From the NCBI GenBank assembly GCA_963769935.1, contig CAVYNY010000003.1:44341-108340 (forward strand): DNA of 64,000 nt, given 5' to 3'. Position numbers and translations under genes: made by a program. Shown in pieces: positions 4,345 through 44,350 of this stretch. A model generated the notes under the pieces. That model did no database searches, was not told where the DNA came from, and saw only the letters and a program-made list of their open reading frames with translations. The DNA comes from an uncultured delta proteobacterium. GTDB taxonomy: Bacteria; Desulfobacterota; Desulfobacteria; Desulfobacterales; JAFDCJ01. The stretch's first letter is position 1; each line of letters starts with the position of its first letter.

Positions 4345-4428
4345 AGAATGTCCACTTAAAATCCAATCAGGTCAGGTAAAGCAGACTTTAACCCTACCCT
4401 GCCGATCCCCTCTCCCTGGCATTTCTAT

Positions 4429-4457
4429 GTAGACCAATTTTATGACTGGCGCGTCTA
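4429..4457 (+). promoter_or_regulatory. putative ECF promoter, motif 1 (GTAGAC-N17-CGTCTA)
   Basis: Upstream of the ECF gene at 4646; same spacing as the copies at 13998 and 20233. Confidence 0.6.
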
Positions 4458-4645
4458 TAAGGTAAAAATCCGAAATTCATGCAAGCGGTCGATTTGGTAA
4501 GATTTTTTAGTTTGAAGGCGGATGGAAATCTGATGGTGGTTAAGTAAACATGGACAATTCAGATGCGGACCGGATATCATGAGTTTCAAATTGATGCAAA
4601 AAGTGTTGCCGCACAATGTACAAACGTGATTTCCAAGCTCCTGAA

Positions 4646-5266
4646 ATGGCTCCATCAGATAAAACCACCACGACCTCTGAAACCTCCGACCAGCTGTTCT
4701 TGCTTGTTGAACAGGCTAAGGCAGGGAACCGCTCGGCCTTCGCCCAGCTGGCCGACCGATTTCATGAAGATATTTATCGCATGGTTTACTACCGCATCAG
4801 ATCCCGTCCCGATGCTGAGGATATTACCCAGGATGTGTTTTTAAAGATATTTCAAAAAATATCCGGCATCAAAGAGACGGCCAAGTTTCGCGGTTGGCTT
4901 TTTAGCATCACGCTGAACCGAATTCGGGATTTTCAGCGCAAAAAACGATTCCGGTCATTATTCAAGGCCGAGGATGAAAGTATAGAGTCGCACGCGCCCG
5001 AACAAAGCGACCAAGATCAGCCTGATGCGCTGGACCATGTTTTAAAAAAGGATTTTTGGCGACAAATCGGTTTGATCCTGAACAAACTGTCAAAAATGGA
5101 AAAAGAAGTCTTTTTGCTGAGGTTTTTTGATCATCTCAGTTTAACTGAAATCGCGGGCGTCTTAAAAAAAAACGAAAGCACGGTCAAAACCCATCTGTAT
5201 CGCGCGCTCGCCAAATTTAAAAGTGAACCCGCAATGCGACGCCTTCTCAATGAGGTTAACAAGTGA
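4646..5266 (+). CDS. ECF RNA polymerase sigma factor (ECF-1)
   Basis: Region 2 DAEDITQDVF...FRGWLFSITLNRIRD; region 4 LSLTEIAGVLKKNESTVKTHLYRA. Start could be 4616. Confidence 0.92.
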   Translation: MAPSDKTTTTSETSDQLFLLVEQAKAGNRSAFAQLADRFHEDIYRMVYYRIRSRPDAEDITQDVFLKIFQKISGIKETAKFRGWLFSITLNRIRDFQRKKRFRSLFKAEDESIESHAPEQSDQDQPDALDHVLKKDFWRQIGLILNKLSKMEKEVFLLRFFDHLSLTEIAGVLKKNESTVKTHLYRALAKFKSEPAMRRLLNEVNK

Positions 5267-5817
5267 ACTCAAATGACAACCACCATTTGGACGAGAATCA
5301 ATTTATTAAAGCGGTAGTGGATGCATCCGACCTGCCGGAGGCCGTGCAGGCGCATTTGTTCACCTGCACTCAATGCCGGAACAGAAGGCAAAACTTTGAG
5401 CGGGAATTGACCAGTTTAGGCCAAATTGCCGGGCTGTCGGTACCGAAACCGCAAAGACGGATCATTTTGCCGGCGCAAAAGTCCACAATCAGATTCTCAA
5501 GTTTCTTGGATTGGCGCAGCGTTATTGTGGCAGCGGCGACGGTTGCCGCTGTATTTATGGTTGTGTGGGGCACCAACATGGCACGCAATTTTTCCGAGCA
5601 CCGAACCGAAAACCTGACAGCGGAAATACGGGATGCCAATCGACCCATGAGCGAAGTCAACTCGCTTGTTGAAAATGCGCTGCCCCCATTTTATTTAGAA
5701 ATCGCAGATGAACCAAAACCAGATTACGATGAAGAGTTTTATCAATTTTTGATTCCGCCTGTTGAAGATAAAACCGTAACCTCTGAGCAAGGGAATCGAG
5801 GAACTTCATTATGCTAA
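5263..5817 (+). CDS. putative membrane-anchored zinc-binding anti-sigma factor
   Basis: HLFTCTQC (HxxxCxxC), one TM helix, overlaps the sigma gene stop. Confidence 0.7.
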   Translation: MNSNDNHHLDENQFIKAVVDASDLPEAVQAHLFTCTQCRNRRQNFERELTSLGQIAGLSVPKPQRRIILPAQKSTIRFSSFLDWRSVIVAAATVAAVFMVVWGTNMARNFSEHRTENLTAEIRDANRPMSEVNSLVENALPPFYLEIADEPKPDYDEEFYQFLIPPVEDKTVTSEQGNRGTSLC

Positions 5818-6218
5818 GAAAGATATTCAGTGTCATCTTGCCGGTCATTTTTCTGGTTGCTCCATTGATTGCCGCGGCTCAGCACGGTCCAAGAGGCAAA
5901 TGGTGGCATAACCCCCAGATTCAAAAGAATTTGAATTTGAACGAAAATGAAATCGGCAAATTGGACCAGCTTTTTGCCAACATCCGCCCCAACCTGATCA
6001 AGCTTAAAACGGATGTCGAGCGCGAGCAATTTGAACTGGATCAACTCCTGAGCAAAAAAAAGGTCGACGATGCTGATGTTAAAAAGCAGTTCCAAAAACT
6101 GGAGCAAGCCCGTAAAAATCTTTCCAACGCACGCCTTGACTTTGTGATCGGCGTTCGCAACATACTCGGTGCCGATCGCTTCCAGCAGCTCAAGTCCAAC
6201 TTTCAGAAGTGGCAGTAG
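5811..6218 (+). CDS. periplasmic Spy/CpxP/heavy-metal-sensor-like helical protein
   Basis: Signal peptide ending AAAQ, then GKWW..P...LNLNENEI and a helical hairpin; third gene of the ECF module. Confidence 0.7.
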   Translation: MLRKIFSVILPVIFLVAPLIAAAQHGPRGKWWHNPQIQKNLNLNENEIGKLDQLFANIRPNLIKLKTDVEREQFELDQLLSKKKVDDADVKKQFQKLEQARKNLSNARLDFVIGVRNILGADRFQQLKSNFQKWQ

Positions 6219-6276
6219 AAAAAATTTTTCGCAACTCGGCCGGTAAGGACTTTTTTCTCCGTGGCACGGCAAAATT

Positions 6277-7026
6277 ATGGATCCGGCAGCAATTCTCGCT
6301 TCACGCGACATCCTGCAAAAAATAGAAACCGTTTGCAGTCGACAGTTCTCTGCTGAAAACGACCGGGATGAGTGTTACATCTTCGTGCTTGACAGCCTCA
6401 AGGCCGACGATTTTAAGCGGCTGCGGGCCTTTAAAGGCAAAAGCAAATTATCCACCTATCTGTATTCTCTGATCAACTCCCTGGTTATTGATTTCAGACG
6501 CAAAAAATACGGCCGCCGGCGTGTCCCGGCCGCCGTGTTAAAACTCGGCAAGTGGGCTGAGGCAGTCTACCGGCTGGTGTGCTGGCAAAAGTTTTCCTTT
6601 GATGACGCCTATGATTTTCTGCGGGTTGACGGCCTGTATGACGGCAACTATGATCAGTTCATACAGGAGATCGAGGCGATCCGGAATGCACCCTGCCGGG
6701 AAAATCCGACTTTTAAATCGATCGATGAACCAGACAGAAATTCGGTCCAGCATATGGAAGCTTCAGGCGCCGATCCGCTGGAGGACCTGATACAAGCGCT
6801 TGACAGGGAAAAAAGAATCACAGCCCTCAGGGTTATTCGCGCAACAACGGAGGCACTGCCGGAGCCCGATCAGATTCTGGTCAGGCTGGTGTTCGGCTCG
6901 GGGCAGCCGCTAAGTGCGGCTGCCAAAATCATCAACCTTTCTGCATCCGCAGCCCGCAAACGGCTGCAGACTCTTTTATTAAAATACAGAGAAAGTTTGC
7001 TGGCCATTGGTATCCGCGAGCCGTAA
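6277..7026 (+). CDS. atypical ECF-like sigma-70 factor (ECF-2)
   Basis: FKGKSKLSTYLYSLINSLVIDFRRK (region 2) and LPEPDQILVRL..GQPLSAAAKIINLSASAARKRL (region 4), with a long insert between them. Confidence 0.75.
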   Translation: MDPAAILASRDILQKIETVCSRQFSAENDRDECYIFVLDSLKADDFKRLRAFKGKSKLSTYLYSLINSLVIDFRRKKYGRRRVPAAVLKLGKWAEAVYRLVCWQKFSFDDAYDFLRVDGLYDGNYDQFIQEIEAIRNAPCRENPTFKSIDEPDRNSVQHMEASGADPLEDLIQALDREKRITALRVIRATTEALPEPDQILVRLVFGSGQPLSAAAKIINLSASAARKRLQTLLLKYRESLLAIGIREP

Positions 7027-7039
7027 AATGTCCGTCTAA
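7012..7039 (+). promoter_or_regulatory. putative ECF promoter, motif 2 (ATCCGC-N11-TGTCCGTCTAA)
   Basis: Spans the ECF-2 stop and precedes the anti-sigma gene; near-identical to 7887-7913. Confidence 0.6.
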
Positions 7040-7095
7040 TTACTCTGCCTGATTATATTTTACTAGGTATGTTTAACAATTGAATAGAGGCAAAA

Positions 7096-7683
7096 ATGGG
7101 AAAATGGATCAATAAAAGCATGGCGCCAGCCGTTTCAGAGCAATCCGCTAATCATCCGGCCATCGAAGATATCGCGCGGCTGGCGGAAGGCAGGGTCGAG
7201 CAAGCTGAACGGGAACAATTCCTGCGCCATCTCAACCGATGCCAAAGATGCTACGAAATCCTGCAGGAAACCCTGATAGACATTGCCTCCGCCAGGCCTT
7301 TGCCAAAGGTTTCCGGTCCCTGGTGGAAATCCAAAATCTTTTATGCCTTGGCTGCCTCAATTTTACTGGTCATTATCATCGGCGGGCGCCTGGTATTTGA
7401 ACACCGCAATCAACATCCCCGGATCATAACCGCCACACTTGATATGGATCAGGAGTTAAAGGACATCCTGCTGGAAGGCGACACCCTGCGGTGGGAGAAG
7501 GGACCGCGGCTAAGCCGGCTGGTGGCTGCTCTGCACAAAAAAGGTCTGCAATTTAATGATCTGAAAGCTGCTATCCTTGCGCAACCCTACTATCAGAAAA
7601 AAAGCCTGTTCGGTCCCGGGGAAGTCCTTCATATTCGCATCGAGAATGGCGTGGCCTATCTGAAGGTTAAAGAAAAAAACTAG
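7096..7683 (+). CDS. zf-HC2 anti-sigma factor-like membrane protein
   Basis: HP..EDIARLAEG...HLNRCQRC, TM segment ALAASILLVIIIG, periplasmic tail. Confidence 0.75.
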   Translation: MGKWINKSMAPAVSEQSANHPAIEDIARLAEGRVEQAEREQFLRHLNRCQRCYEILQETLIDIASARPLPKVSGPWWKSKIFYALAASILLVIIIGGRLVFEHRNQHPRIITATLDMDQELKDILLEGDTLRWEKGPRLSRLVAALHKKGLQFNDLKAAILAQPYYQKKSLFGPGEVLHIRIENGVAYLKVKEKN

Positions 7684-7886
7684 CTTTATGCCCTGCAAAT
7701 ATATTTAAGTAGTCGACGGGAATACTCAATTAGAGTTGCAGCTTTGAACATAAAAAATTCCAAGCCCCAAATAACTGCTTTTTGGAATTTGAAATTTGCG
7801 ATTTAGACCTACCTTGTCCCCTTCCCTCTATTCTCAATCCCTTTCGAAAAAAGACATCCCACTCAAAAAAAAATAATGAATTATTG

Positions 7887-7913
7887 ATCCGCCATTACCA
7901 TCTGTCCGTCTAA
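7887..7913 (+). promoter_or_regulatory. putative ECF promoter, motif 2 (ATCCGC-N10-TGTCCGTCTAA)
   Basis: 55 nt upstream of the 7969 start; shares 11 identical nt plus ATCCGC with 7012-7039. Confidence 0.6.
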
Positions 7914-7968
7914 CAAGTTAAAAAGAAATCCTTCACTTTACCAACACAATGTCAAGAGGAGACCTGTC

Positions 7969-8817
7969 ATGTTAAAAGTGACGTTCAGCAGCTCGGCCCC
8001 GAATCCTCCAATTCGAACATGGCGTTGGGTGTTTCTTGGATTGGCCGTTTTTATTTTTACTGTCCCGGGATTTCCGGCAGCTGCGAAACAACCCCCTACC
8101 ATTCAGCTGTTTCCAACCACGGTGGTGGAAAATATCAAGCACACCGGAGAGGCGGCCAAAGCCATGGAACAGGACCTTCAGAGTGTGATTGACCGCCTGA
8201 ATCAGCAGGAGGAGCTTTACCTGGCGAGCAAGTGCGAAGGGGCCGCAGCCGAACAGGGCTGCAATGAAATCGCCGGACAGCTGAGTCAAACCTATCTGGA
8301 GATGCTGACCTTGATGGAAACCCGCCTGCCGGGGATGGAGGATTCGGTCCGGGCCACGAATACCAGCCTGGAAAGACGGATTCGCACGGAGTTGGGCCGC
8401 AAAACAACTCCCCGTGGTCTGCAAAAACTTGTAGATGGAACGCCGCAGCAATCAACTGAGTCTCCCCGCTACAAGCGAAGGGCGGGAAGACTGAGCGAAA
8501 AGTTCAGACAGTATTACAAACTGGTAGCCATGGCCCCCGGATCGGGCGCGGGTGGATCACTGGCGGCAGTCGCCGCTGAAATTTACCTTGATACCCAGGA
8601 AGTGCAGGAACTTATTGCCCTCACCCGCGATGAAATCAGCCGCGCCAAACTCATGATTGATCTCGATCAGGCATACGGCATCATCACGCCGGAAATGTTT
8701 GAGATGGTCGGCCGGGTGAAAACGATTATATTTGGCGAGACCGGAGAAGCGGAAGGCATACCCAGTCCGCCGGCCGGCAGCGCTAAAGCAGAATATCGCA
8801 GCCCCCTTGAGATGTAA
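7969..8817 (+). CDS. exported alpha-helical/coiled-coil protein of unknown function
   Basis: GAGGAG RBS, signal peptide ending PAAA, Cys pair (SKCEG...QGC), long helical segments. Confidence 0.75.
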   Translation: MLKVTFSSSAPNPPIRTWRWVFLGLAVFIFTVPGFPAAAKQPPTIQLFPTTVVENIKHTGEAAKAMEQDLQSVIDRLNQQEELYLASKCEGAAAEQGCNEIAGQLSQTYLEMLTLMETRLPGMEDSVRATNTSLERRIRTELGRKTTPRGLQKLVDGTPQQSTESPRYKRRAGRLSEKFRQYYKLVAMAPGSGAGGSLAAVAAEIYLDTQEVQELIALTRDEISRAKLMIDLDQAYGIITPEMFEMVGRVKTIIFGETGEAEGIPSPPAGSAKAEYRSPLEM

Positions 8818-8854
8818 CTATGGAGGCGTTCGCCTATAACCGGAGGGTGTTATT

Positions 8855-9427
8855 ATGATTAAGCTACAAAGTAAAATGAATGCCTGGCGTTTCGACCAAA
8901 TTTTTCTGATGTTGATAGTCCTCGCACTTTTTCCGGCGGCCTGCGGGAACCGGCAATATGTTAAACCCGGCTGCACGCTGCCTTCCGGCGTAAATCTTGA
9001 AGAAGCGTTGGCGCACTCAAGAGAAGATCTTGGGCACCTGGAGTGCGAAACCATGTTTGACGGTTACTATATTAGACTCATTGAAGTCGCCAAACGCGAC
9101 CCCGCAATACAAAACAAGCGCAAGTTCAGCGATTTTTTGGAATGGGCCAATGGGGAAGGCATTATCGATAAGATCCAGGCTCGCGACTACTATAATCGCT
9201 ACTTCAATACCACCTTCATGTCTCTGCCGGACGATTTTAATGTTTGCTCATCCTGCGCCGAGAAAACCCAAAAAGATCTCGAATCCCAGCTGGAAGAAGA
9301 ACTCGGCCAGAAAGAAGAAGGGCTGTTGAGAGCGTGCCAGGATAAAAACGCCTATTACCTTGCGGCTGATCAATATAACTCCATCATGCTGCTGCTGGAC
9401 GCCACCTGCACTGCCTGTCGGAACTGA
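8855..9427 (+). CDS. Cys-rich lipoprotein of unknown function
   Basis: GGAGG RBS, lipobox-like FPAAC, further Cys residues including CSSC and CTAC. Confidence 0.7.
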   Translation: MIKLQSKMNAWRFDQIFLMLIVLALFPAACGNRQYVKPGCTLPSGVNLEEALAHSREDLGHLECETMFDGYYIRLIEVAKRDPAIQNKRKFSDFLEWANGEGIIDKIQARDYYNRYFNTTFMSLPDDFNVCSSCAEKTQKDLESQLEEELGQKEEGLLRACQDKNAYYLAADQYNSIMLLLDATCTACRN

Positions 9428-9472
9428 TATGACAAGCGAATGTCAGATAATGCTGAGCATCAGGACTGAATA

Positions 9473-9570
9473 ACACGGACTGAGCAACGAGGACTGAGGA
9501 CAGAGATGGAAAAAATTCGAGCGATGCAAACAGCGATACGTTCAGTCCTCAGCCCTCAGCCCTCATCACT
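9473..9570. repeat. inverted heptamer arms (GGACTGA / TCAGTCC-TCAGCCC)
   Basis: ggactga-type units on the left and complementary tcagtcc/tcagccc units on the right. Confidence 0.6.
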
Positions 9571-9607
9571 TTTTCGAGCAGAAACTAAATTTTAGGGAAT
9601 TCATACG

Positions 9608-10321
9608 ATGGAAAACAGATCTCATTCCGTCACGGTCTTTTCAGCCGGCTTTATCACCGGCGCCCTGGGAGTGCTGGTTATCGGCGCTGCGATGCTTTAC
9701 ATGTTGAACATGTCTGAATTTGTTGCCATATCCGTGTTGAAAATTCCCAGGGTTCAAAGGGTGCTGACGTGGACCTATGAGAATCTCAGACTCTCGATCA
9801 TCCCCTTTTTCTTTACTTCGCTGCTGTATACCGGCTCTCTTCTCCGCTTAAAGCGTTATCTGAAAGATCAGCGCACTCCGGTGGAAAAGATTGCCCAGAG
9901 CGAGCAGCTGGTTGATATCTGGATCAATCTATTCTTCGGGATCGGGGTAATTTGGACGGCCATCGGCATGCGCGGCGCCTTGCTGGACGGAGTCGGTGAC
10001 TTGAATGCCCAATCGGCAGCACAGCTGGGCGCCTTTTCGATCCTGCAACGATTGGTGGACGGCGGAATTTTGCTGGCATTATCCACCACCATCTTCGGTG
10101 CCGTCGGCGGCTATCTGCTGCGCCTGATTAAATCCATGGCGGTGGGTACCCAGGTGAAAGCTTATTACAATCGACTGGCAGAGCAGCAGGCCGACTCAGT
10201 TCATAAAGCCCTGCAATCCATCGACGGGCGGGTCCAGGAATTGGTGGGGATACAGAAAAATTTAAATAACTTGGCGAACACAACCGATGAAGGTAAAGCT
10301 ATCCGTCCGCCGGTTATTTAA
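9608..10321 (+). CDS. MotA/TolQ/ExbB-like proton-channel membrane protein
   Basis: Four hydrophobic segments; LFFGIGVIWTAIGM and GILLALSTTIFG resemble the ExbB/TolQ GLLGTVxGM and ALxTTxxG helices. Confidence 0.65.
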   Translation: MENRSHSVTVFSAGFITGALGVLVIGAAMLYMLNMSEFVAISVLKIPRVQRVLTWTYENLRLSIIPFFFTSLLYTGSLLRLKRYLKDQRTPVEKIAQSEQLVDIWINLFFGIGVIWTAIGMRGALLDGVGDLNAQSAAQLGAFSILQRLVDGGILLALSTTIFGAVGGYLLRLIKSMAVGTQVKAYYNRLAEQQADSVHKALQSIDGRVQELVGIQKNLNNLANTTDEGKAIRPPVI

Positions 10322-10450
10322 AGAAATGCAGGCATCAGGTGTTGAGAAAAAGCAAAAATATCAGAAAGGTTTCAATCCCTGCACACCGCAACGGACAATG
10401 GACAAACGACAGCGGACTTTGAATAATTGGCGCTCAATTTGGAGCAATCG

Positions 10451-11287
10451 ATGCACCCTTTATATCCATCGCCAATATCTCTTATCCGGCCCGAGGCTTC
10501 CTTTTCAAATGAGGTGGAAGTGCTGCAGACGGATGTCATGCGATTTTTTGCGATATTATGTCTGTGCCTGATGGCGATATTTGCTCTGGTCAAAACCCTG
10601 CCCATGGCCCCTTCGACCGGTCCTCCCACGATGGTCGAACCCACGGACCTTAAAGCAGATGTCGAAGCTCTGCAAAAACACATTGCCATGCTCAAAGAGA
10701 GGCTTGGGCAGTTAAGGACCCAAGTTCAGGCCGCCGCCGTCGACGCCGAAAAATCAACGACCGTGGCTGCCGTTGCGGAAAAAAAAATTAAAGATGAAAC
10801 GCAACACCTGGCAGAGATACAGGCAAAACTGAAGCGGGAAAGAGTAAAATTGAATCAACCTCGGTCGGAGAAAAAACCGGCTGAAATATTACCGGCTGAG
10901 CAAAAAAATCCGCCGCCTCAGACCGTCAGGCAAGGATTCAGCTTGCGTTTTGCCTCGGATGCGGCGCTGCAAAAGCTGATCGACAGCGGGAAAGTAAATT
11001 TTTATGCATTAGCCGGGAAAAAAGCCTGGCAATTGCACCTGAGAGACGGACAGCCGGTCTATTCGTCGACCCGATTTCCCAGTCAAATTCATGAAATGCA
11101 GACTCCCACCGTTCCCACTGAGTATACCGGGGCTTTTCACCGGCAGGTAGCGGCGTTCGGCCGCACCACGGTGACCTGGGGGGTGACGCTGCCTTCCCCA
11201 ACTATGTCATCCATTAACCAGCTCATCAAAAGCCGACCCGGGGGTGATCTGATCATCACCGCGGCCGGCGAGGTCGTTATAAAATGA
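10451..11287 (+). CDS. MotB/ExbD-like single-pass protein with periplasmic coiled coil
   Basis: GGAG RBS before ATG 10451; N-terminal TM with an Asp at its start (QTDVMRFFAILCLCLMAIFALV), then a coiled coil and a globular C-terminus; follows the MotA-like gene. Confidence 0.55.
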   Translation: MHPLYPSPISLIRPEASFSNEVEVLQTDVMRFFAILCLCLMAIFALVKTLPMAPSTGPPTMVEPTDLKADVEALQKHIAMLKERLGQLRTQVQAAAVDAEKSTTVAAVAEKKIKDETQHLAEIQAKLKRERVKLNQPRSEKKPAEILPAEQKNPPPQTVRQGFSLRFASDAALQKLIDSGKVNFYALAGKKAWQLHLRDGQPVYSSTRFPSQIHEMQTPTVPTEYTGAFHRQVAAFGRTTVTWGVTLPSPTMSSINQLIKSRPGGDLIITAAGEVVIK

Positions 11288-12882
11288 CAACCACCAACAA
11301 CATCGGGACCGGGATCCGGCCGTACATTTTACTCTTGATTTTTATAGGGTTGTCGGCCTGCAGCGGCCATCAGGTGTACCATGAAGTTGGACTGCCGGCC
11401 GGCGGATCGTCGCTTGATACCTGGCTGGAAGATACCCTTATTCCATACCTGCTCCAGCAACTCAGCCAGCACCCGCGCTTTAAAGGCCAACCCATTTTGT
11501 TGGTCGGCCTGCGCGGCGATGAGGTCCGCTCCCGCGCAGATGACTTGACGGGAGAGATCCGATCAAAAATCGGCGACGCGCTGCTGAAACAACCCGGTCT
11601 CGATCTTGCCTGGCAACCGACCGGCCCGCCACGAGAACACCATCAACGTCTCGCGGATGTCTCCTGTGGCACTTACCGCAAAATCCAATATTACATCGGT
11701 CTGGACTGCGGTTTGACCCGATTGGAGGGCAAGCTTTATGTAAAAGTGCGGGCCTTGAACCTTGCCGAACAAAAATGGGTGACCGGCTTCGGCAAATCAT
11801 GGGAAGGGCGGCCGACCGCAGCCCAGCTGGCGGCTCTGGCGCGCGAACATCCGGATGAATATTTGCGGGGTCGGCGCCAGCTGCCGTTTTCCGAGGAGCA
11901 GCCGGATTTGTTGGCTGCCTATTTGGCCCGCAATCTAAGCTGTGTTTTGCGGCAGGCCGAATCCGATAATCTGGTGGTGCATGTTGCCAAACCATCCGCA
12001 AATTCCCCGGCAGTCTTTAAAACGGCCCTGGAACTTGTGGGAAACTACCTGGCGCGTTTTCGGGAGGTGGAAGTAACCGATGATCCGAACCAGGCCAATA
12101 TCACCCTGGTATGCGAAATCCATGCCATCCATCAAGGCTTGCACCAGATCTGGGTCTCTGCCAGACACCGCCGTGATGAAAAATATCTGCCCGGCGCAGA
12201 GACTGAAGCGTATGTGTTGATTGATGCCCATGAACAGATGCAGGTCGCCGGCGCGCAGAATGCAAGACCTTATGCGCCCCTGCCCTCCGCCGCGCGCCTA
12301 TCGAATTCATCTGAACTAATAGCATCATTTGATCTACTGACGCCGATGAATCAGAATTCATGTTCAACCGGCGCTCCCTGGCAGTCTGGTGTACGGCGGA
12401 TTGACTCCCAGGAACGTATTCCGGGCGGCGGCTGTCTGGCCGTAGAAATGACGCTTTCGGCGGCGGCTTATGTTTTTTTGGTGGGTCAGGATGCCGGTGG
12501 TGAATTAACGCAAATGTTTCCATCTGTCTGCACCGGCCGGCAGGAAAATGATGCCCTGCTCCATCCCGGTCAGCTATTTCAATTTCCATCACTTTCAGAT
12601 CCCAACGCCGGGGTACTGGAACTTACCGGTTCGCCCGGCAGGGAACGGGTTTTTGCAATTGCCATAACAAGCCCGGATCTGGCCGATCGATTTGCCGACC
12701 GGCTGGTGGAAGTCCAGGACCTGTGCCGACCCGGCAAAATATTTGCCGATAACCTAATAGCCGGTAATAGCCGAACCTCTGCCGAAGGTATTTATCAATG
12801 GCAAGACTACTTGATCCGGCTTTCGGCTGATAATCCCGGTTTGGTCCAGTGGCAGGCAATCAGCTTCTGGCACGAGCCGTAG
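11284..12882 (+). CDS. lipoprotein with C-terminal DUF4384-like domain
   Basis: Lipobox GLSAC; alpha/beta N-terminal domains; LAVEMTLSAAAYVFLVGQDAGGELTQMFPS...PGRERVFAIA; overlaps the upstream stop. Confidence 0.65.
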   Translation: MTTTNNIGTGIRPYILLLIFIGLSACSGHQVYHEVGLPAGGSSLDTWLEDTLIPYLLQQLSQHPRFKGQPILLVGLRGDEVRSRADDLTGEIRSKIGDALLKQPGLDLAWQPTGPPREHHQRLADVSCGTYRKIQYYIGLDCGLTRLEGKLYVKVRALNLAEQKWVTGFGKSWEGRPTAAQLAALAREHPDEYLRGRRQLPFSEEQPDLLAAYLARNLSCVLRQAESDNLVVHVAKPSANSPAVFKTALELVGNYLARFREVEVTDDPNQANITLVCEIHAIHQGLHQIWVSARHRRDEKYLPGAETEAYVLIDAHEQMQVAGAQNARPYAPLPSAARLSNSSELIASFDLLTPMNQNSCSTGAPWQSGVRRIDSQERIPGGGCLAVEMTLSAAAYVFLVGQDAGGELTQMFPSVCTGRQENDALLHPGQLFQFPSLSDPNAGVLELTGSPGRERVFAIAITSPDLADRFADRLVEVQDLCRPGKIFADNLIAGNSRTSAEGIYQWQDYLIRLSADNPGLVQWQAISFWHEP

Positions 12883-13084
12883 AGAAAGGACACTAATTGT
12901 ATTTGAATTGAAAATACTCTGCTGCCGATGTCGGAAGGATCCATTTTGACCAAATGGCGCAAGGCAGACGGCGCAGGGTATTTGTGCTCGTCTTAATATG
13001 ATGCCATTAGCTCGGGTAACAGGTAGTCCATGAGGTGCAGTTCACAACCGGTAACCCGAGACACGCACCTCGTAAGCCGAAACA

Positions 13085-13125
13085 CGTAACTCGCAACCCG
13101 TAACTCGCAACCCGTAACTCGCAAC
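13085..13125 (+). repeat. tandem 14-bp (2x7) repeat CGTAACTCGCAACC, about 3 copies, with degenerate copies from about 13045
   Basis: cgtaactcgcaacc cgtaactcgcaacc cgtaactcgcaac, directly abutting ATG 13126. Confidence 0.85.
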
Positions 13126-13949
13126 ATGACTCAACTGCACATTATCACTAAACTAATTATCTGCCTGGCCTTGCTTGGATATGGTCAACAGGCGGCAGGC
13201 GCCCTTAAAGAAGCCGGATCGGATATTGAGGCGCTGTGGCGCCTTTTTCTGGCCAACGATGCGCTGAAATCCCCTGTGATCAGTTTCCCTTATGATCACT
13301 GTTTTAATACGGCCGCCCAAAAATATGATCTACCTTTATCACTTCTTCTGGCCGTGGCGCGCGGTGAATCCGACTTTAATCCCAGAGCCCGGTCGGATCG
13401 CAACTGCCACGGATTGATGCAAATCCAGTGGCCCGGAACAGCCAAACATCTGGGAATCTATCGACTTGCGGCGCTGTATGAGCCGTGCACCAATATTAGC
13501 GCCGGAGCCCGATATCTGAGGGAGCTTATGGACCGCTATGATCAAAATCTGCATCTGGCCCTGGCGGCATACAACTACGGGCCGAATCGCATCCAGCCCA
13601 AAGCCGGACCGGGCCGTATTCCTCAGGGCGCCCAATGGTACAGCGGCTATATTTACCATCACCTGGAATTTGTCACCCAGGGGGGGACGCCGCATCCGGC
13701 GGCGCAGCGGGCAAAGGGTCGGCCTACGGCCGTGAAAAGCGGCTGGCAATCATAACGTTTAACCGGCCATATCGAGCGAGCGCATTTTACCGGCACCTTC
13801 AAGAACAGGCACCTGCGCTGAAACTCGATTGGTATCGTATCGGTTTGGGAAGGTTTCAGGTGGTGATGCGGTTCACGGATAAAAAAGCACTGGAAGCCGG
13901 CCGCAAAAAATTAAGAACTCTGGGAGTGATCGTCAAAGCCAGGAAATGA
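13126..13949 (+). CDS. exported SLT-family lytic transglycosylase, apparently frameshifted at a G7 run (ORFs 13126-13755 and 13635-13949)
   Basis: VARGESDF, GLMQI, GARYL and ALAAYNYG motifs; one extra G in the run at 13680-13686 joins it to a plausible small alpha/beta (SPOR-like) C-terminal domain. Confidence 0.75.
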
Positions 13950-13997
13950 GATGGAATGCCGGACCAATGATGTTGAAAAAATCAGCTAAATTATTTT

Positions 13998-14026
13998 GTA
14001 AACCTTTTTTTAACCTTATACGTCAC
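13998..14026 (+). promoter_or_regulatory. putative ECF promoter, motif 1 (GTAAAC-N17-CGTCAC)
   Basis: Intergenic, upstream of the caspase gene at 14394. Confidence 0.5.
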
Positions 14027-14126
14027 ACTCAATAGAAATTTTTTGTTATATAGTTTCATATGAGCGCCGCGGCTCTGAGAGCGTCATCTGATAGTGGAAG
14101 AAATTCGATGTAGTTTTATAAGTGCC

Positions 14127-14280
14127 CTCACCGCTGAGAGTCACAGAGAGCGCAGAGATTACATTAAAATTTTCTTTCGTCGGCGTTCTCGGCAGGCTCT
14201 GCGGTGAACTATCAGTTTCTTTTTCGATCAGATCGGCCGTTGTTTTGACAATGCGGCTTTGGCGCTGAAACCTGACATCT
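14127..14280 (+). repeat. dispersed composite palindromic repeat, family B
   Basis: Aligns by eye with the reverse complement of 26122-26296. Confidence 0.85.
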
Positions 14281-14393
14281 GTTAACCTAATTTTTGCAAT
14301 TTTAAATTATCAACGTTCTCAACTTCTCCCGAATAGAGTCTTGGAAAATGCAAGGGGCAAAATACCTAAAAAGCAAAAATTAGCGGAGTTCTT

Positions 14394-15818
14394 ATGGCTG
14401 ACAAAAATAAAAAGCTCGGCGGTTTTTGGTCCTATCTTCTCTGGCTGCTGCTGATGTCATTGGTCCTCGTTTCAACCTCCAGGGGTGAAGATCGGGCCCT
14501 GCTGATCGGTGTCGGACGGTATGCGCATTTCGAAGAAAAGCTCAACGGCGTCAGTCTGGATCTCGGCATGATGAAAGAATTATCACAACTGATGGGATTT
14601 AAGGAACATGCAATTAAGGTGCTGGAAAATGAGCAGGCATCTACCGCCGGGGTTAATGAGGCGATTGAAGACTGGTTGATTCGGGGCACCGGACCGCAGG
14701 ACCGGGTCCTGTTTTATTTCAGCGGGCACGGCTCCCAGGTTCCGGATGAAAACAACGATGAAAAGGATCATTTTGATGAAGTGCTGCTGCTCTATGATGT
14801 GACCCTCACGGAAAGGCAAGGCCGGCAGACATTGAACGGTGTTTTGCTCGATGATCAATTCGGCAGCATGCTGGCAAAAATCAAAAGCCGCAACATTCTG
14901 GTCATTCTCGATGCCTGCCACAGCGGCAGCGCAACCAGGAGCATCCGGCTGACCACCCGGTCTATTCCGATACACAACGCTCAGGTGAAATACTTCTATT
15001 ATTCGCCGATGCTGGAGGCAGCCGGCGGCAGCGGCCGGTTCGATGTGATGGAGCCGGATGCTTCACCGGCGGCTGCAGGCCGCTATGTGGCAATTTCGGC
15101 CTGCCGCGACGATGAGATGACGCTTGCCACCGCCCAGGGAAGCATATTCACACTCGGGCTGCGCGAGACCTTGCGTGCGGCGGCCAGGGCCGGAAAAAGC
15201 ATTTCGCCCGCAGAATTACAGCGCCGGACGACCCGATTCATTCAGGAACAAATAGGATCCGAAGGGGCTGCATTTCATCCCCAGATTGCCGGCCAAAAAT
15301 CCCTTCTTGAGCGTCCTTTGGAACTGGTCTCACTTGCCGGAGGAAGCGGCCCGGTGCGTCAAAATCTGGAAGCATTGATGCATAAAAGCCATGAAACCGT
15401 CTGGATCAATTTAAACAAAATCTGTTTTGAACCTGGCGACGTACTTGAAATATCCGTCAGATTATCCGAACCGGGGTATTTGAATGTCGTCAGTGTTCGT
15501 CCGGATGATCAGGCCACGGTGCTGTTTCCAAACCAATATCACCGACAGAATGCCGTTGACCGGGGCGCGTTGACCCTACCCACCCGTCAGATGAACTTTG
15601 AATTGGTGGCCGACGGCCCCCCGGGCACCATTCTGATAACGGCCTTTCTGACCCCTTCACCGGTGGACGGCTACAAAAACGGCTTCAAGACCCCGGAGGA
15701 TGTGATGGCGGGTCTCTCACCCGGTACAACGCGCTCCTTGATGCTGCGCCAAAACCAGGACTGGCTGGCCGCCGGCAGGGTAGCCGTTGAAATGCGGGAA
15801 AAAGGAGGATGCAGGTGA
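14394..15818 (+). CDS. exported caspase-family (C14) peptidase with C-terminal DUF4384-like domain
   Basis: Signal peptide; RALLIGV, FYFSGHG (His), ILDACHSG (Cys); FEPGDVLEISVRLSEPGYLNVV..LFPN. Confidence 0.88.
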   Translation: MADKNKKLGGFWSYLLWLLLMSLVLVSTSRGEDRALLIGVGRYAHFEEKLNGVSLDLGMMKELSQLMGFKEHAIKVLENEQASTAGVNEAIEDWLIRGTGPQDRVLFYFSGHGSQVPDENNDEKDHFDEVLLLYDVTLTERQGRQTLNGVLLDDQFGSMLAKIKSRNILVILDACHSGSATRSIRLTTRSIPIHNAQVKYFYYSPMLEAAGGSGRFDVMEPDASPAAAGRYVAISACRDDEMTLATAQGSIFTLGLRETLRAAARAGKSISPAELQRRTTRFIQEQIGSEGAAFHPQIAGQKSLLERPLELVSLAGGSGPVRQNLEALMHKSHETVWINLNKICFEPGDVLEISVRLSEPGYLNVVSVRPDDQATVLFPNQYHRQNAVDRGALTLPTRQMNFELVADGPPGTILITAFLTPSPVDGYKNGFKTPEDVMAGLSPGTTRSLMLRQNQDWLAAGRVAVEMREKGGCR

Positions 15819-16696
15819 AATATTTTTTCAAGTTTATCGCTGTCTTGTCGCTAATAATTTTTACCTGTATTCCCGTGGCGACCCGTATTTCAGCTGCTAT
15901 GGACTGCCGTCTGGGTGCTGATTACTACTACCAGGCCAAATCCGAAGCCGATCCGCAGCAGGCTATCCTCTGGTTGAAGCGGTCGGCGCAAGTATGCCCC
16001 AATTTCAATGCCTGGTATATGCTCGGGATGATATACACCCGCCAAGGAGAAATTGATCCCGCCATGGCCGCTTTTATGCGGGCCAGGACCCAGGCTGTTT
16101 CCTCCAAAACCGAAGCCCTGGCCCTGGCCCGCCAGGGCGAACTGCTGGCCCGCTCCGGTCAGCTGCCCCGGGCCCAGCAGGCCCTGGAACTGGCTGGACG
16201 GTTTTATCCTGCACCTGCGCCGGCTTGGCTGGAGGCATCTCTTAAGAATACCAGAATTAAACTGCAGCAGTCGCTGATAACAGCAGCCGATATCAAGTAT
16301 GTACTTGAATCCGGCACGCAATTAAGCAAAGACGGCCGATTTGCGGTTCGCCCGGCAGTGAACCTGCCGGTGCACTTTGACTTCGACCGGGCGGATCTGA
16401 ATTCAGCCGGCAGCCGTCAGGTGATGGAACTGGGTGGTGCCCTTTCCCACGCAACATTGAAGCAGTGGTCTTTTCTGCTGGTCGGCCATACCGACAAGCG
16501 CGGATCCATGGCCTACAATCAGACGCTCTCCGAAAGTCGCGCCTCTTCGGTAAGGATAGAATTGGAACACAGCTTTCCTTCGCTCATCGGCAGGCTGCAA
16601 GCCATGGGACGCGGCGAGACCGAATTACTGTACGACGGCGACAGCGAAGAAGATCATATGCTCAATCGCCGCGTGCAGGTGACGCTTTATCATTGA
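15809..16696 (+). CDS. exported TPR + OmpA-family peptidoglycan-binding protein
   Basis: TPR-like AWYMLGMIY..QGEIDPAMAAF; VHFDFD, VGHTDKRG, YNQTLSESRA, NRRV. Confidence 0.88.
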   Translation: MQVKYFFKFIAVLSLIIFTCIPVATRISAAMDCRLGADYYYQAKSEADPQQAILWLKRSAQVCPNFNAWYMLGMIYTRQGEIDPAMAAFMRARTQAVSSKTEALALARQGELLARSGQLPRAQQALELAGRFYPAPAPAWLEASLKNTRIKLQQSLITAADIKYVLESGTQLSKDGRFAVRPAVNLPVHFDFDRADLNSAGSRQVMELGGALSHATLKQWSFLLVGHTDKRGSMAYNQTLSESRASSVRIELEHSFPSLIGRLQAMGRGETELLYDGDSEEDHMLNRRVQVTLYH

Positions 16697-16875
16697 AAAT
16701 TGAAGATTGAAGATTGAAGATTGAAGATTTATGGAGTCGCCTCGCTCCAACTTTCAATTTAAATATTTTCAAAACCAAATCCGTTTGCAGCAAGATGTTT
16801 AATTGATAATGCGATATTTAAAATTTTGGCTAAAATCGATAGGATTCCGCCAATTTTCAATCTTCAATTTTCAAT
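16692..16875. repeat. dispersed repeat family A (ATTGAAG heptamer arms, GTCGCCTCGCTCC core)
   Basis: Tandem attgaag units with inverted ttcaat units at the far end; related to 28751, 52284 and 53613. Confidence 0.85.
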
Positions 16876-16914
16876 AAATTACATTTCACCCTGATTAGGA
16901 ATCTGTTTGTACCA

Positions 16915-19900
16915 ATGATTAGAGGACATAAAAAAATAGCGCTGTTGACGATATTGCTCTGGCTGGCCGGCGGCATTTCCCTGCCTGCCCTTGCTGAAAA
17001 TCATGCCCTGCTGATCGGTATCGGCAAATACCGGCAGCGCACACTGGAGGGGCCGCCCTATGATGTTGCGGCGCTTTCTCGAGTGCTTGCGGCGCAGTAT
17101 GATTTTCAAAAGGAAAATATCCGTACGCTCGTAAATGAAGAAGCCGTCAAGTCCAGAATCCTTTCTGAGATCGAGCGTCTGACGCATCACACCCATCCCG
17201 GAGACCGGGTATTCATTTATTTCAGCGGTCACGGAACCAGCCGCCGGGATGAAGTGCTGGCGCTTCCGCTGCCGTACAGCACCGGTGCGCTGGTGCCGGC
17301 TGATTTTGAGGCTGATCCCGCTCAACCGGTTGAAAAACTGCTGTCGCAGCTGATCATCGGCAGACGCGACCTGCGGCCGGCGCTGGAGCGACTTGATCGG
17401 GACCGACAGGTCCTGATGGTTTTTGATACCTGTTTTTCAGGCAATACCATCCGAGCCATTGGAAATCATAAAACCGCAAATTTAAGCCGCTACCTCCCGC
17501 TGCCGTCAAGAAGTGTCTTCAAAGCGGAGCGGGAAATTGGAAGCTTTGAGGAAAATTTGAATCTGGATGACCCATATCCCTATCAAAATATTTTTTATAT
17601 TTCGGCGGCTTCGGAAAATGAAGTCGCCAAGGATATCCAAAAAGATACCTTGGACTTATATCCGACCATTGACGGCAATCCCCATGGGGTTCTGACGGAC
17701 GCCCTTTTAAGGGTGCTGGCGGGACAAATGCGCGTCGACACCGACAACGACGGCCGGTGGAGCCAGATTGAGCTGTATGCGGCTGTCAAAAAAGAGGTTC
17801 AACGGCGCTTCCAACAATCGCCGCAGGCCTTGCCCAAGGTAGGGACCCGCACCGATCGGCTGTATTCGAGAACCTTTTTTGTGCGTTCGGCAAAAGCGGT
17901 TGCCACAGCAGGCGGGCACCCGGCCGAACCGGCGCCCGGCCGCCAGGGCGCGAATTATCAATCGGGTTATTCTTCTTCCCATGCGCTGGTGGTTGGCATA
18001 AACGAATATCGACACTGGCCGCGGCTCGAATATGCCGCCAATGATGCCAGGGCAATGGCCGCCAGGTTGAAAGCACAGGGCTTTCAGACTTACCTGCTCA
18101 CCGATGAGCAGGCCACGCTGAAAAATATTCTGGCCGGACTGGAAACGATTCGCCGCAGCATTGATGAGAATTCACGGATGATGTTCTATTTTGCCGGGCA
18201 CGGTCAGACCGAGGACCTGCCTGGAGGACGGGAAAGAGGGTATATCGTGCCGGTGGATGCGGATGCCTACAACTGGCAGCGTACGATGCTGCCCATGGAT
18301 CGGTTGAATCAAACTATCAGGCAGTTCAAAGCCAAACATATCCTTATGGCCTTTGACTCCTGTTACTCCGGACTGGGGTTGACTCGCTCGATAAAAGGTC
18401 GTCCCGATCCGGATTCCGCCTACATTCAGAAAATGATGCACTCCCGAAGTATTCAGATACTGACAGCGGGCAGCCGTTCCGAGCAGGCCATTGAAGCTGC
18501 CGGCCACGGACTGTTCACGGACCAACTGCTGGCCGCCCTCGCGGGGGCGGCGGATATTAATTCCGACGGATACATTACGGCGACCGAAATTTATGCCACC
18601 CTGCGTCCGGCCATAACCCAGAAGTCCTATAGCCGCCAGACCCCGCAGTTCGGCTATATCGAGGGCAACGGCGATATTATTTTTCTTAATACTTCCCGCG
18701 AACCAGAACCTGCCGCCGTTGTTGTTGATACTGCAATTAGCGGCATCGACGTATGGGCCGGCACCTCTGAAATCGGTCACCGCCTGCCGGCCGGACGGCA
18801 TCAGTTACCGGCTCTTGCGGGGCAAACAGCTCTGATCGTTAAAAAGGGCGGACGCACCCTTTATCGAAAGAATGTGCTGCTGTCCGCCAACAGGGTGTTT
18901 TCAATCCAGATCGGCGCAACCATTGCGACATCACACCCGCCGGAAGCATTTTCCACGATTACTATTGCCAATCATAGCGTCGACAATTATTCAAATTCGA
19001 TTGCCTATGATCTGGACGGTGACGGCCGGGAGGAGATGGTGACCGCCTCGGATAACCGGCTTTTTGCTTTCAGGTCCGACGGCACCATCATCTGGGAAAA
19101 AAAATTCCATTTCCCGATCACCTTGGATCTGATTGATGACTGGAATTCGCAGCCGGCCATTGGGCTGTCCGCCGTGAATGAGGATACAGTTCACCTGGTG
19201 CTGCTTGACCAGCGGGGAGAGCAAATTTGGCAGCATGTCCGAAAACTTACCCGCTATTACAACGGCAAAACCGACGGCGGGGGAAAGATTGCCGGGCTGG
19301 CGGACGTCGACCGGGACGGCCGCCAGGACGTCGTGGCCTTTGCCACGGCAGAATACACCTTAAAGCCCCGCGGCATCATCGTGTACGACGGTCGTGCCCG
19401 TGAACTGTGGCGCTACACAATCGGACCCGCTCCACAAAGCATCGTTGTCTGGCAAAAAGATTCAGGACGACCCGACATCATCATCGGAACGTACAGCCCG
19501 GGCGACGGAAATCGCGACTTAACCAACAACACCAGCGATATGCAAACCTACATCATCAGTGTCGACGGTTTTGGCAAAGCAAACTGGCAGATCCCGGTCG
19601 GCGGGTTTTACAGCGGGGTTGTCGTGCTGCCGGCCGGTCTGAAGGACCCTGCCCGTCGCTTTCTTTACGCCCATACCTATACGTCATCTCTTTATCGGGA
19701 AGATGTCGGCGCCATATATAAGATCTCACGATCCGGTCAAGTTCTTAATCGCTTTGAGACCCAAAATTCAATTTTAAGTGTGGCGGTTGCTGAAGCTGAC
19801 CAAAATGGACGGGAATATCTGTATGCGGCCGATAACAAGGGCAACCTGTTAAGACTGGATGAGCGCTTGAATCTGCTCCAGAGAAAGCCCTTGACTGCTG

Positions 19901-20223
19901 GACCGGCTGCTTCCCAGGTCAGACTGGTGGGGGTTCATGATTATGACGGCGATGGTTATAAAGACCTATTGCTTTACTCCTTTAATCGCCTGCTGTCCGC
20001 CAAGAATCCTCTGGCAGAAACGGGTCCGAATGACGCCGGGTTCTTCTCCCAGTTAAAGTTTCAGGTCATTTCAAAGGACTTTTCCAGGGTTTTGAAGAGT
20101 GTAACCATTGCCGCAGAATGGGAAAAATGGCGGGGATTTGCCGTCAAGGACCTGGACCGACCGGATACGACGTATTATCCGTTTATGGCACTGAGCGATA
20201 AATTAACGATATTTAACTACTAA
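16915..20223 (+). CDS. exported tandem double-caspase protein with FG-GAP/VCBS-like beta-propeller
   Basis: Signal peptide; domain 1 YFSGHG/FDTCFSG; domain 2 YFAGHG/FDSCYSG; DxDxDG motifs (YDLDGDGREE, ADVDRDGRQD, HDYDGDGYKD). Confidence 0.88.
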   Translation: MIRGHKKIALLTILLWLAGGISLPALAENHALLIGIGKYRQRTLEGPPYDVAALSRVLAAQYDFQKENIRTLVNEEAVKSRILSEIERLTHHTHPGDRVFIYFSGHGTSRRDEVLALPLPYSTGALVPADFEADPAQPVEKLLSQLIIGRRDLRPALERLDRDRQVLMVFDTCFSGNTIRAIGNHKTANLSRYLPLPSRSVFKAEREIGSFEENLNLDDPYPYQNIFYISAASENEVAKDIQKDTLDLYPTIDGNPHGVLTDALLRVLAGQMRVDTDNDGRWSQIELYAAVKKEVQRRFQQSPQALPKVGTRTDRLYSRTFFVRSAKAVATAGGHPAEPAPGRQGANYQSGYSSSHALVVGINEYRHWPRLEYAANDARAMAARLKAQGFQTYLLTDEQATLKNILAGLETIRRSIDENSRMMFYFAGHGQTEDLPGGRERGYIVPVDADAYNWQRTMLPMDRLNQTIRQFKAKHILMAFDSCYSGLGLTRSIKGRPDPDSAYIQKMMHSRSIQILTAGSRSEQAIEAAGHGLFTDQLLAALAGAADINSDGYITATEIYATLRPAITQKSYSRQTPQFGYIEGNGDIIFLNTSREPEPAAVVVDTAISGIDVWAGTSEIGHRLPAGRHQLPALAGQTALIVKKGGRTLYRKNVLLSANRVFSIQIGATIATSHPPEAFSTITIANHSVDNYSNSIAYDLDGDGREEMVTASDNRLFAFRSDGTIIWEKKFHFPITLDLIDDWNSQPAIGLSAVNEDTVHLVLLDQRGEQIWQHVRKLTRYYNGKTDGGGKIAGLADVDRDGRQDVVAFATAEYTLKPRGIIVYDGRARELWRYTIGPAPQSIVVWQKDSGRPDIIIGTYSPGDGNRDLTNNTSDMQTYIISVDGFGKANWQIPVGGFYSGVVVLPAGLKDPARRFLYAHTYTSSLYREDVGAIYKISRSGQVLNRFETQNSILSVAVAEADQNGREYLYAADNKGNLLRLDERLNLLQRKPLTAGPAASQVRLVGVHDYDGDGYKDLLLYSFNRLLSAKNPLAETGPNDAGFFSQLKFQVISKDFSRVLKSVTIAAEWEKWRGFAVKDLDRPDTTYYPFMALSDKLTIFNY

Positions 20224-20232
20224 CAGACGACG

Positions 20233-20261
20233 GTAAACAAAATCGACGCGTCGTGCGTCTA
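20233..20261 (+). promoter_or_regulatory. putative ECF promoter, motif 1 (GTAAAC-N17-CGTCTA)
   Basis: Upstream of the glycine-zipper lipoprotein gene. Confidence 0.6.
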
Positions 20262-20357
20262 TCAGGCTAAAATTCGACAAACCAAAACCTATGGGAACCG
20301 GCACACTGCGGGTGTCCGGCAATCAACCAGCCGCTGCACAGAAAGGAGGACGTCCAG

Positions 20358-20795
20358 GTGAAAACAATATCAAAAGGCATTTTTATTTTAATTGGATTGG
20401 TTATTGTTGCATCATGCGCCGGCCGACAATACGATCGTTACAATACCCAGCGCGGTGCGGCAATCGGCGCCGGCTTTGGCGCACTGACGGGACAGCTTAT
20501 CGGCCGCGATACCAGAAGCACGCTTATCGGTGCCGGTGTCGGGACCCTGGTGGGCGCTATCTTCGGAAACGCAGTTGATCAGGAGCGCCAGATTGCCAGA
20601 GAAGCGGCCGTAACGAATAGAAGAATTGTTTACTACGATCAGCAGGAAGGCCACGCTCTCGAAGCGATCCCCGGCCCCGAGGACCGGCACACAAAATGCC
20701 GCAAAGTAACCAAACGCGAGTGGGACAAGGGGTATCTTGTCAGCGAGCGAGTTGAAGAAATTTGTGAGGGGGAAAAGGTATCACAAATGTATTAA
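20358..20795 (+). CDS. glycine-zipper lipoprotein
   Basis: AGGAGG RBS, lipobox VASC, GAAIGAGFGALTG...GAGVGTLVGAIFG. Confidence 0.85.
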   Translation: MKTISKGIFILIGLVIVASCAGRQYDRYNTQRGAAIGAGFGALTGQLIGRDTRSTLIGAGVGTLVGAIFGNAVDQERQIAREAAVTNRRIVYYDQQEGHALEAIPGPEDRHTKCRKVTKREWDKGYLVSERVEEICEGEKVSQMY

Positions 20796-44319: not shown

Positions 44320-44350
44320 AACGTCTTTGTAAAATCCGAGTAGAGTGTAT

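Follow-up and report, generated by a model that had tools for sequence, protein, structure and literature searches.

A likely autoregulatory promoter motif of extracytoplasmic function sigma factors at a caspase locus of an uncultured Desulfobacterales bacterium

The locus described here lies in a 64,000-nucleotide (nt) stretch, the window (positions 44,341 to 108,340 of contig CAVYNY010000003.1, assembly GCA_963769935.1), of the 8-Mb genome of an uncultured delta proteobacterium of the order Desulfobacterales. It contains genes for a sigma factor of the extracytoplasmic function (ECF) type, here called ECF-1, and for a second sigma-70-family protein, ECF-2, followed by a middle operon, a caspase arm and a glycine-zipper lipoprotein gene (Table 1). 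Two sequences recur between these genes: the two-part motif GTARAC-N17-CGTC (motif A) and the ten-base motif TGTCCGTCTA (motif B). A hydrophobic segment is present in each of the 13 non-sigma proteins scored from the locus, N-terminal in 11 of them, and all three caspase domains have intact His and Cys motifs. Four products of the middle operon are exported or membrane-bound proteins without a Pfam family above cut-off.

Table 1. Features of the locus in window coordinates; promoters, start sites and anti-sigma factors are predicted.
Feature	Position	Strand	Remarks
Promoter A1, TGTAGAC-N17-CGTCTA	4428..4468	+	before ECF-1; predicted start near 4464-4465
ECF-1 sigma factor, sigma2 + sigma4	4616..5266	+	orthologues mostly start at 4646
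Probable anti-sigma 1	5263..5817	+	one hydrophobic segment (85-103), weak zf-HC2 match
Exported Metal_resist (Spy/CpxP-like) protein	5811..6218	+	
ECF-2, sigma-70 family, sigma2 + sigma4 + inserted helical domain of ~60 residues	6277..7026	+	
Motif B1, TGTCCGTCTA	7029..7038	+	directly past ECF-2 stop (two bases), before anti-sigma 2
Probable anti-sigma 2	7096..7683	+	weak zf-HC2 match, one hydrophobic segment (79-103)
Motif B2, TGTCCGTCTA	7903..7912	+	before middle operon
Middle operon	7969..13755	+	DUF4384 protein, SLT lytic transglycosylase, four others
Promoter A2, TGTAAAC-N17-CGTCAC	13997..14037	+	before caspase-DUF4384; predicted start near 14034
Repeat element in A2 leader	14100..14280		blastn
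Caspase (Peptidase_C14)-DUF4384	14394..15818	+	N-terminal hydrophobic segment, His/Cys motifs kept
TPR-OmpA protein	15809..16696	+	Pfam
Double-caspase FG-GAP protein	16915..20223	+	N-terminal hydrophobic segment, both His/Cys motifs kept
Promoter A3, GTAAAC-N17-CGTCTA	20233..20272	+	before glycine-zipper gene; predicted start near 20269
Glycine-zipper lipoprotein	20358..20795	+	Pfam

A pattern search of the window finds exactly three matches to motif A, at 4429, 13998 and 20233, all on the plus strand. They are intergenic and sense-oriented with respect to the genes for the ECF sigma factor, the caspase-DUF4384 protein and the glycine-zipper lipoprotein (genes assigned by Pfam), bearing out the first-pass annotation, in which a threefold motif of this kind was described. 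Shuffling the window 100 times gave a mean of 0.05 matches and a maximum of 1, a comparison that is circular, as the pattern was derived from the same three sites. Genome-wide, there are 33 matches at a spacer of 17, versus 9-24 at each of ten other spacers (12 to 22); ten of the 33 are intergenic according to our own gene calls, versus 0-7 at the other spacers. The remaining 23 matches, within called genes, are probably due to chance.

A less circular matrix was built from 28 sites upstream of ECF-1 orthologues, none of them from the source genome; its core letters were picked by the pattern, but its flanks were not. At 17 bits or more, this matrix retrieves nine sites at spacer 17 (eight intergenic), against 0-5 (0-2 intergenic) at the other spacers. 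The window sites rank 3, 6 and 7 genome-wide, and the top eight intergenic sites are all sense-oriented. With an earlier matrix, the site at 13998 scored below 16 bits owing to its CGTCA. This site lies 370 nt from the caspase-DUF4384 gene, and the A2-to-gene distance of 396 nt compares with 63-204 nt in eight out of nine relatives. The repeat element within the leader, which has 87 blastn matches in the genome, may explain the longer distance. Scans for sigma-70 promoters and terminators remained at shuffle level (16 versus 15.5 and 22 versus 22.2, respectively).

Twenty-nine ECF-1 orthologue loci were collected from the order, one of which has no upstream DNA. Motif A is present upstream of all the other 28 (23 exact, one with spacer 16 and four with GTC for GTA), while shuffles gave a mean of 0.175 and the reverse strand 1. 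An overlapping first set of loci had shown the site in 16 of 21 ECF-1 orthologues and in none of six distant ECFs. The caspase-DUF4384 gene is preceded by motif A in nine of nine relatives with upstream DNA (seven exact, one with spacer 16, one GTCAAC), with CGTCA every time, and the glycine-zipper gene in seven of ten, six exact and one near. The claim of an exact 17-nt spacer, true of the three window sites, does not extend to the relatives, where 16 also occurs. Among named relatives, those closest to ECF-1 come from delta-proteobacterial and Desulfobacterales assemblies.

Positions that were not part of the search pattern are conserved too, namely a T preceding the -35 element and an A/T tract following it. 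If the C of CGTC is numbered -13, GTARAC ends with its C at -31, in keeping with the geometry of PMC7776599. Among 126 distinct sites, which are all pattern matches in the collected loci, kin included, the base at -1 is a pyrimidine in 102, and the next four, +1 to +4, are A in 92, 106, 100 and 83, respectively. Such a pyrimidine and A-run is the signature expected of a start site and was not asked for by the search. Six loci contain back-to-back motif-A promoters, one directed to ECF-1 and the other facing the opposite way: L113 (G020:C25:18675-18733), where the latter points to a His-rich exported gene, and the metagenome loci L176, L185, L204, L214 and L218.

ECF-1 is the likely reader of these sites. 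Its DNA-contact residues were placed via an alignment with AlgU and are given in RpoE numbering. There is a Lys at 171, a Thr at 172 and an Asp at 84. In dataset S3 of PMC7776599, Lys-171 is associated with C at -31 (0.98) and Asp-84 with CG at -13/-12 (0.62); the specificity code at these two positions agrees with motif A, both for ECF-1 and for ECF-3, a second clade described below. Pfam places sigma2 of ECF-1 at 46-111 and sigma4 at 149-200, with no sigma3 match, as in ECF (group 4) sigma factors, which have sigma2 and sigma4, no sigma3 and at most 50 residues in between (PMC7826278). In the 41 genomes that have ECF-1, the strict pattern reaches a density of 0.43 per Mb, versus 0.11 in the 109 that lack it; its reversed control reaches 0.30 and 0.23, respectively, and the genomes are kin rather than independent. 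Motif A has the behaviour of an autoregulatory ECF promoter, and it likely constitutes the -35 and -10 elements of ECF-1. This role had been proposed in the first-pass annotation, and the conservation before the ECF-1, caspase and glycine-zipper genes supports it.

None of the other ECFs of the genome has motif A upstream. The ECF on contig C10 was rejected as a reader of motif A, having its own site, the candidate promoter TGTAAC-N16-CGTT upstream of G000:C10:165594-166013. The sigma factors on C28, C13 and C38 were rejected as they lack the site and have different contact residues, and the one on C12 is merely an 85-residue piece. Three metatranscriptomes from one study (13-20% of words) consist of assembled contigs of relatives that are silent on starts and strand; one spans A1, and they were not used.

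The second clade, ECF-3, appears to replace ECF-1 in some relatives. Among ten relatives with the caspase arm, ECF-1 is present in six and ECF-3 in all other four. In three loci that could be read over a long distance, ECF-3 adjoins ECF-2 in opposite orientation and has the same promoter motif; a gene for a His-rich protein lies before it, and genes for a zf-HC2 anti-sigma factor and a DUF3106 protein follow. ECF-3 and ECF-1 are 33% identical and have the same residues at 171, 173 and 84. In a quick tree, from which a fragment on C8 of the source genome was excluded, ECF-3 forms a separate clade (support 99), and a sister relation to ECF-1 is neither supported nor rejected (support 40). Exact motif A precedes 16 of 17 ECF-3 loci, six with spacer 17 and ten with spacer 16. 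Within the genus (23 genomes), ECF-1 is found in seven, ECF-3 in 11, both in one (G012, with 8% contamination) and neither in six, so that a single one of the 17 carrier genomes has both; within the order (151 genomes), the figures are 42 for ECF-1, 16 for ECF-3 and one for both. Hypergeometric P values are 0.045 (genus) and 0.032 (order), which overstate the case because the genomes are kin and incomplete. With contact residues that are nearly alike, the ECF-3 cassette likely does the job of ECF-1 on the same promoters. In one ECF-3 locus (L103, G016:C40), ECF-3 and two middle-operon genes are frameshifted in the assembly.

Outside the locus, the orthologue-matrix scan found five further top motif-A sites on other contigs. 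Those on C20 and C32 precede genes for two small exported His/Tyr/Arg-rich proteins, that on C14 a DUF6600 protein gene, that on C31 a gene for an exported protein rich in Gly and Pro, after which comes a second glycine-zipper lipoprotein gene, and that on C18 a gene for a multi-haem cytochrome. We call the latter cytochrome c3-like on account of the haem-binding motifs it contains rather than a family search. The cytochrome and His-rich genes have motif A in relatives as well. Where a gene is inserted between promoter and sigma factor, it encodes a small exported basic protein, for both ECF-1 and ECF-3. From their sequences, most of the motif-A target genes encode exported proteins, and the set reads as an envelope regulon. 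The cytochrome gene (G000:C18:282406-282900, L254) is split across two frames here and whole in relatives, and the DUF6600 gene (G000:C14:1798-3126, L250) has an apparent frame change near its 3' end. An exported 164-residue protein has motif A in two relatives (G013:C697:40351 and G015:C52:84775; L096 and L097); its source-genome orthologue (C10:65294) has no motif-A site upstream. Short tandem or inverted repeats are present in intergenic DNA of the window at 9455-9570, 13060-13125 and 16695-16900.

The locus had been considered a single regulon under ECF-1. The shared motif A before the caspase and glycine-zipper genes upholds part of this, but five sites lie outside, and the middle operon and the second anti-sigma gene have motif B. 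Nor is a self-contained ECF-1 regulon supported, as ECF-1 was not found in four of the ten caspase-arm relatives and another ECF clade stands behind motif A. A wider motif-A regulon with a nested motif-B unit, i.e., two layers of control, is the likely replacement.

ECF-2 and motif B would form this second layer. Upstream alignments show TGTCCGTCTA before the middle operon in ten of ten loci. The source genome has six copies in total, and nine of its 6851 genes serve as background. Of 93 metagenome loci, 80 were kept; motif B lies between ECF-2 and the anti-sigma gene in 59 of the 61 showing both genes (the other two have GGTCCGTCTA), and 26 of 28 have it ahead of the middle operon. Counted as distinct sequences, these are 54 and 22, for the most part from close kin. 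Among nine distant ECF-2 homologues (24-49% identity), TGTCCGTC occurs between sigma and anti-sigma factor in five and in near-identical form in one, with no conservation in the -35 region. Three of four wide distant loci contain a TPR-CHAT gene, and two have further motif-B copies; in G366, four of the eight genome-wide copies are found within about 15 kb on the ECF-2 contig. Counted over whole genomes, motif B is no more frequent than its reversed control, which leaves its position as the sole evidence. In L137 and L138, genes resembling toxin-antitoxin pairs separate the ECF-2 homologue from the anti-sigma gene, and motif B was not found there.

The sigma4 domain of ECF-2 superimposes on sigmaE region 4 (Z 10.1, root-mean-square deviation 1.5 over 69 residues). 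Its sigma2 domain ends near residue 78 and sigma4 starts near 178, leaving about 100 residues between them, beyond the ECF limit of 50 (PMC7826278); it passes only the cut-off of the sigma70-ECF superfamily. There is no Pfam sigma3 match, and the best profile matches are to FliA, via sigma4. A sigma3-like identity of the middle domain gained no support: its 60-residue model (predicted local distance difference test score of 90) gave no match at E<=0.001.

Taken together, the best explanation is that ECF-1 or ECF-3 acts on motif A and ECF-2 on motif B, to which we assign, from sequence comparisons, a probability of roughly 0.8. The membrane anti-sigma factor would hold ECF-1 back and let it go upon an envelope signal. 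Freed ECF-1 would then, probably, transcribe from A1, A2, A3 and the five outside promoters. It would read TGTARAC-N16/17-CGTCW before the operon that encodes it, before the caspase arm and the glycine-zipper lipoprotein gene, and before the five genes elsewhere, with a predicted start at the A-run that lies 13 nt past the C in CGTC. Where the locus is of the ECF-1 type, the A1 transcript probably covers ECF-2, which starts 58 nt past the Spy-like gene. ECF-2, in turn, would read TGTCCGTCTA, in which four more fixed bases stand upstream of the CGTCTA core and which has no conserved -35, and produce its own anti-sigma factor (a negative feedback) and the middle operon; that it reads B1 and B2 is probable. 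By analogy with DdvA and Csx29, the exported caspases might cleave an anti-sigma factor, but this is a guess, and a rather doubtful one. We regard with similar reserve a two-step envelope cascade, in which either ECF clade would induce the exported caspases, these would release ECF-2, and transcription from an extended -10 element alone would drive the inhibitor of ECF-2 rather than ECF-2 itself.

The idea that the three motif-A sites are chance matches picked afterwards could draw on the 23 of 33 genome-wide matches inside genes, but it is refuted by the conservation counts across relatives: motif A is conserved in place while its flanks diverge, and the matrix from other genomes puts the sites at the top. 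It is very improbable that ECF-2, rather than ECF-1, reads the sites before the caspase and glycine-zipper genes. ECF-2 does accompany the caspase arm in ten of ten relatives against six for ECF-1, its Arg at the 171 position and Asp at the 84 position are compatible with C at -31 and CG, and three loci have a motif-A site directly before ECF-2. However, with close orthologues in only four of 151 genomes, ECF-2 is no explanation for motif A in the order as a whole, where the motif precedes ECF-1 or ECF-3; G008 has three motif-A sites and ECF-3 without an ECF-2 match, and ECF-2 has a co-travelling motif of its own in motif B.

Slightly less remote is a single regulon in which ECF-1 (or ECF-3) also reads TGTCCGTCTA, the extra TGTC offsetting a poor -35. 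Both motifs contain CGTCTA, the site at C32:254989 combines GTAAAC with TGTCCGTCTA, and several motif-A sites of the genus have GTC or GTT ahead of CGTC. Autoregulatory sites of ECF-1, nevertheless, have no base preference at the four additional positions of motif B, and exact motif B is kept beside distant ECF-2 homologues in four genomes (G039, G221, G366 and G218, the last only 67% complete) in which neither ECF-1 nor ECF-3 was found. Motif B might also be bound by a different regulator or act as an RNA signal, leaving motif A as the only sigma promoter. Motif B stands anywhere from about 25 to more than 300 nt from the start codon, and distant loci have no conserved -35; yet the motif is sense-oriented and non-palindromic, contains the same CGTCTA core as motif A, shifts with the anti-sigma start upon DNA insertion (L186, L196) and clusters at ECF-2 loci, making this alternative unlikely, if less so than the preceding ones.

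Several observations weigh against assigning motif A to ECF-1 or ECF-3 and motif B to ECF-2. Even in genomes with ECF-1, the strict pattern is only 1.4 times as frequent as its reversed control, and eight of the 41 have no match. Thr-172 predicts G at -34 (0.74; PMC7776599, dataset S3), where the motif has A (0.16). Five of 21 orthologues in the first set had no detected site, some with little upstream DNA, site A3 is missing in three of ten relatives, and the GTC and spacer-16 variants were admitted only after inspection of the data. Because the genomes of the relatives are kin and in part incomplete, the P values look stronger than they are. ECF-1 and ECF-3 occur together in three genomes (G012, G051 and G512). 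Motif B is missing in three of nine distant loci, two of them with apparent gene insertions, and the Gemmatirosa homologue of ECF-2 is an orphan without it. Three metagenome loci (L179, L183 and L233) have a motif-A-like site (CGTCC) directly upstream of ECF-2 with no ECF-1 cassette seen; this site looks like a promoter remaining after loss of the cassette. Finally, ECF-2 points away from motif A in ECF-3-type loci, and therefore a cascade from ECF-1 to ECF-2 is not universal.

Autoregulatory ECF promoters are well known, and motif A alone is a further member of an ordinary class. For uncultured Desulfobacterales-like bacteria, the targets would make up a first envelope regulon that can be read, exported caspases included. 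Two clades with 33% identity appear to swap at one locus while the promoters stay constant, an exchange in which nature tests the specificity code of sigma factors. ECF-2, outside the ECF classification by its long linker, is paired with a ten-base motif without a conserved -35 before its own inhibitor. Should the cascade hold, it would define a family of sigma factors whose promoter code does not depend on a -35 and which is spread across Thermodesulfobacteriota beside caspase or CHAT proteases.

By title and the start of the abstract, no paper on motif A or B was found in the literature, and a search with TGTCCGTCT gave none on sigma promoters by title among the matches listed. The parts of the PMC7776599 supplement that were searched have no Desulfobacterales or caspase entry; S1/S2 lay outside the search and S6 perhaps uses numeric identifiers, so these ECFs may be inside. 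The TGTARAC -35 is absent from the written motifs of the searched supplement of the ECF re-classification (GTAAAC, GTAGAC, GTAAA and TGTAG: 0), logos being outside the search. Earlier work has established the AAC/CGT promoter class, autoregulation and loci with several local promoters (PMC6061681; PMC7776599). Like motif A, promoters of this class are in two parts, with C at -31, CG at -13/-12 and a pyrimidine-purine step at the predicted start, and there are several copies near the sigma gene and a few elsewhere (PMC6061681; PMC7776599). Here, unlike in that class, two separate clades share the motif.

ECF-1 and ECF-3 were compared with groups ECF111, ECF281, ECF290 and ECF37 by their descriptions and, for ECF111, ECF281 and ECF37, their listed motifs. 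ECF111, ECF281s2 and ECF290s1/s2 have an anti-sigma factor with a single transmembrane (TM) segment at +1 and a heavy-metal-resistance protein at +2 (PMC7826278). ECF-1 has the gene order of all three, which for ECF111 is described as a single-TM anti-sigma factor at +1 and a heavy-metal-resistance or LTXXQ protein at +2. The -10 elements of ECF111 and ECF281, GTCTAA(A), also resemble motif A, but the -35 elements differ: the ECF111 promoter is TTGAACCT / GTCTAAA, with TGTARAC here in place of TTGAACCT, and that of ECF281 is GGAACTT / GTCTAA (PMC7826278). The ECF-3 cassette is like that of ECF37 in its single-TM anti-sigma factor at +1 and DUF3106 protein at +2; however, the anti-sigma factor of ECF37 is of the DUF3619 or RskA-like type (zf-HC2 for ECF-3), and its promoter is TGTCAACC / CGTT as opposed to GTAAAC / CGTC (PMC7826278).

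Two systems combine a sigma factor with a caspase-like protease. The CASP-sigma / Csx30 / Csx29 system of Desulfonema ishimotonii has, as here, a sigma factor, an inhibitor, a caspase-like protease and three sigma sites per locus (PMC10028731). That system is CRISPR-linked, whereas the present locus has membrane anti-sigma factors and exported-looking caspases, and no CRISPR or CBASS genes among the locus proteins scanned with Pfam. DdvS/DdvA of Myxococcus xanthus likewise comprises an ECF with several promoters at its locus and a caspase-clan protease domain nearby (PMC6061681; PMC11506125), and the distant ECF-2 homologues resemble it in standing beside TPR-CHAT genes at three of four wide loci. 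DdvS differs in its motif, GTAA-n16-CGT, which has a shorter spacing than motif A (PMC6061681). In contrast to DdvA, both anti-sigma factors of the present locus are shorter than 200 residues and without a CHAT match, and the proteases are separate C14 caspases.

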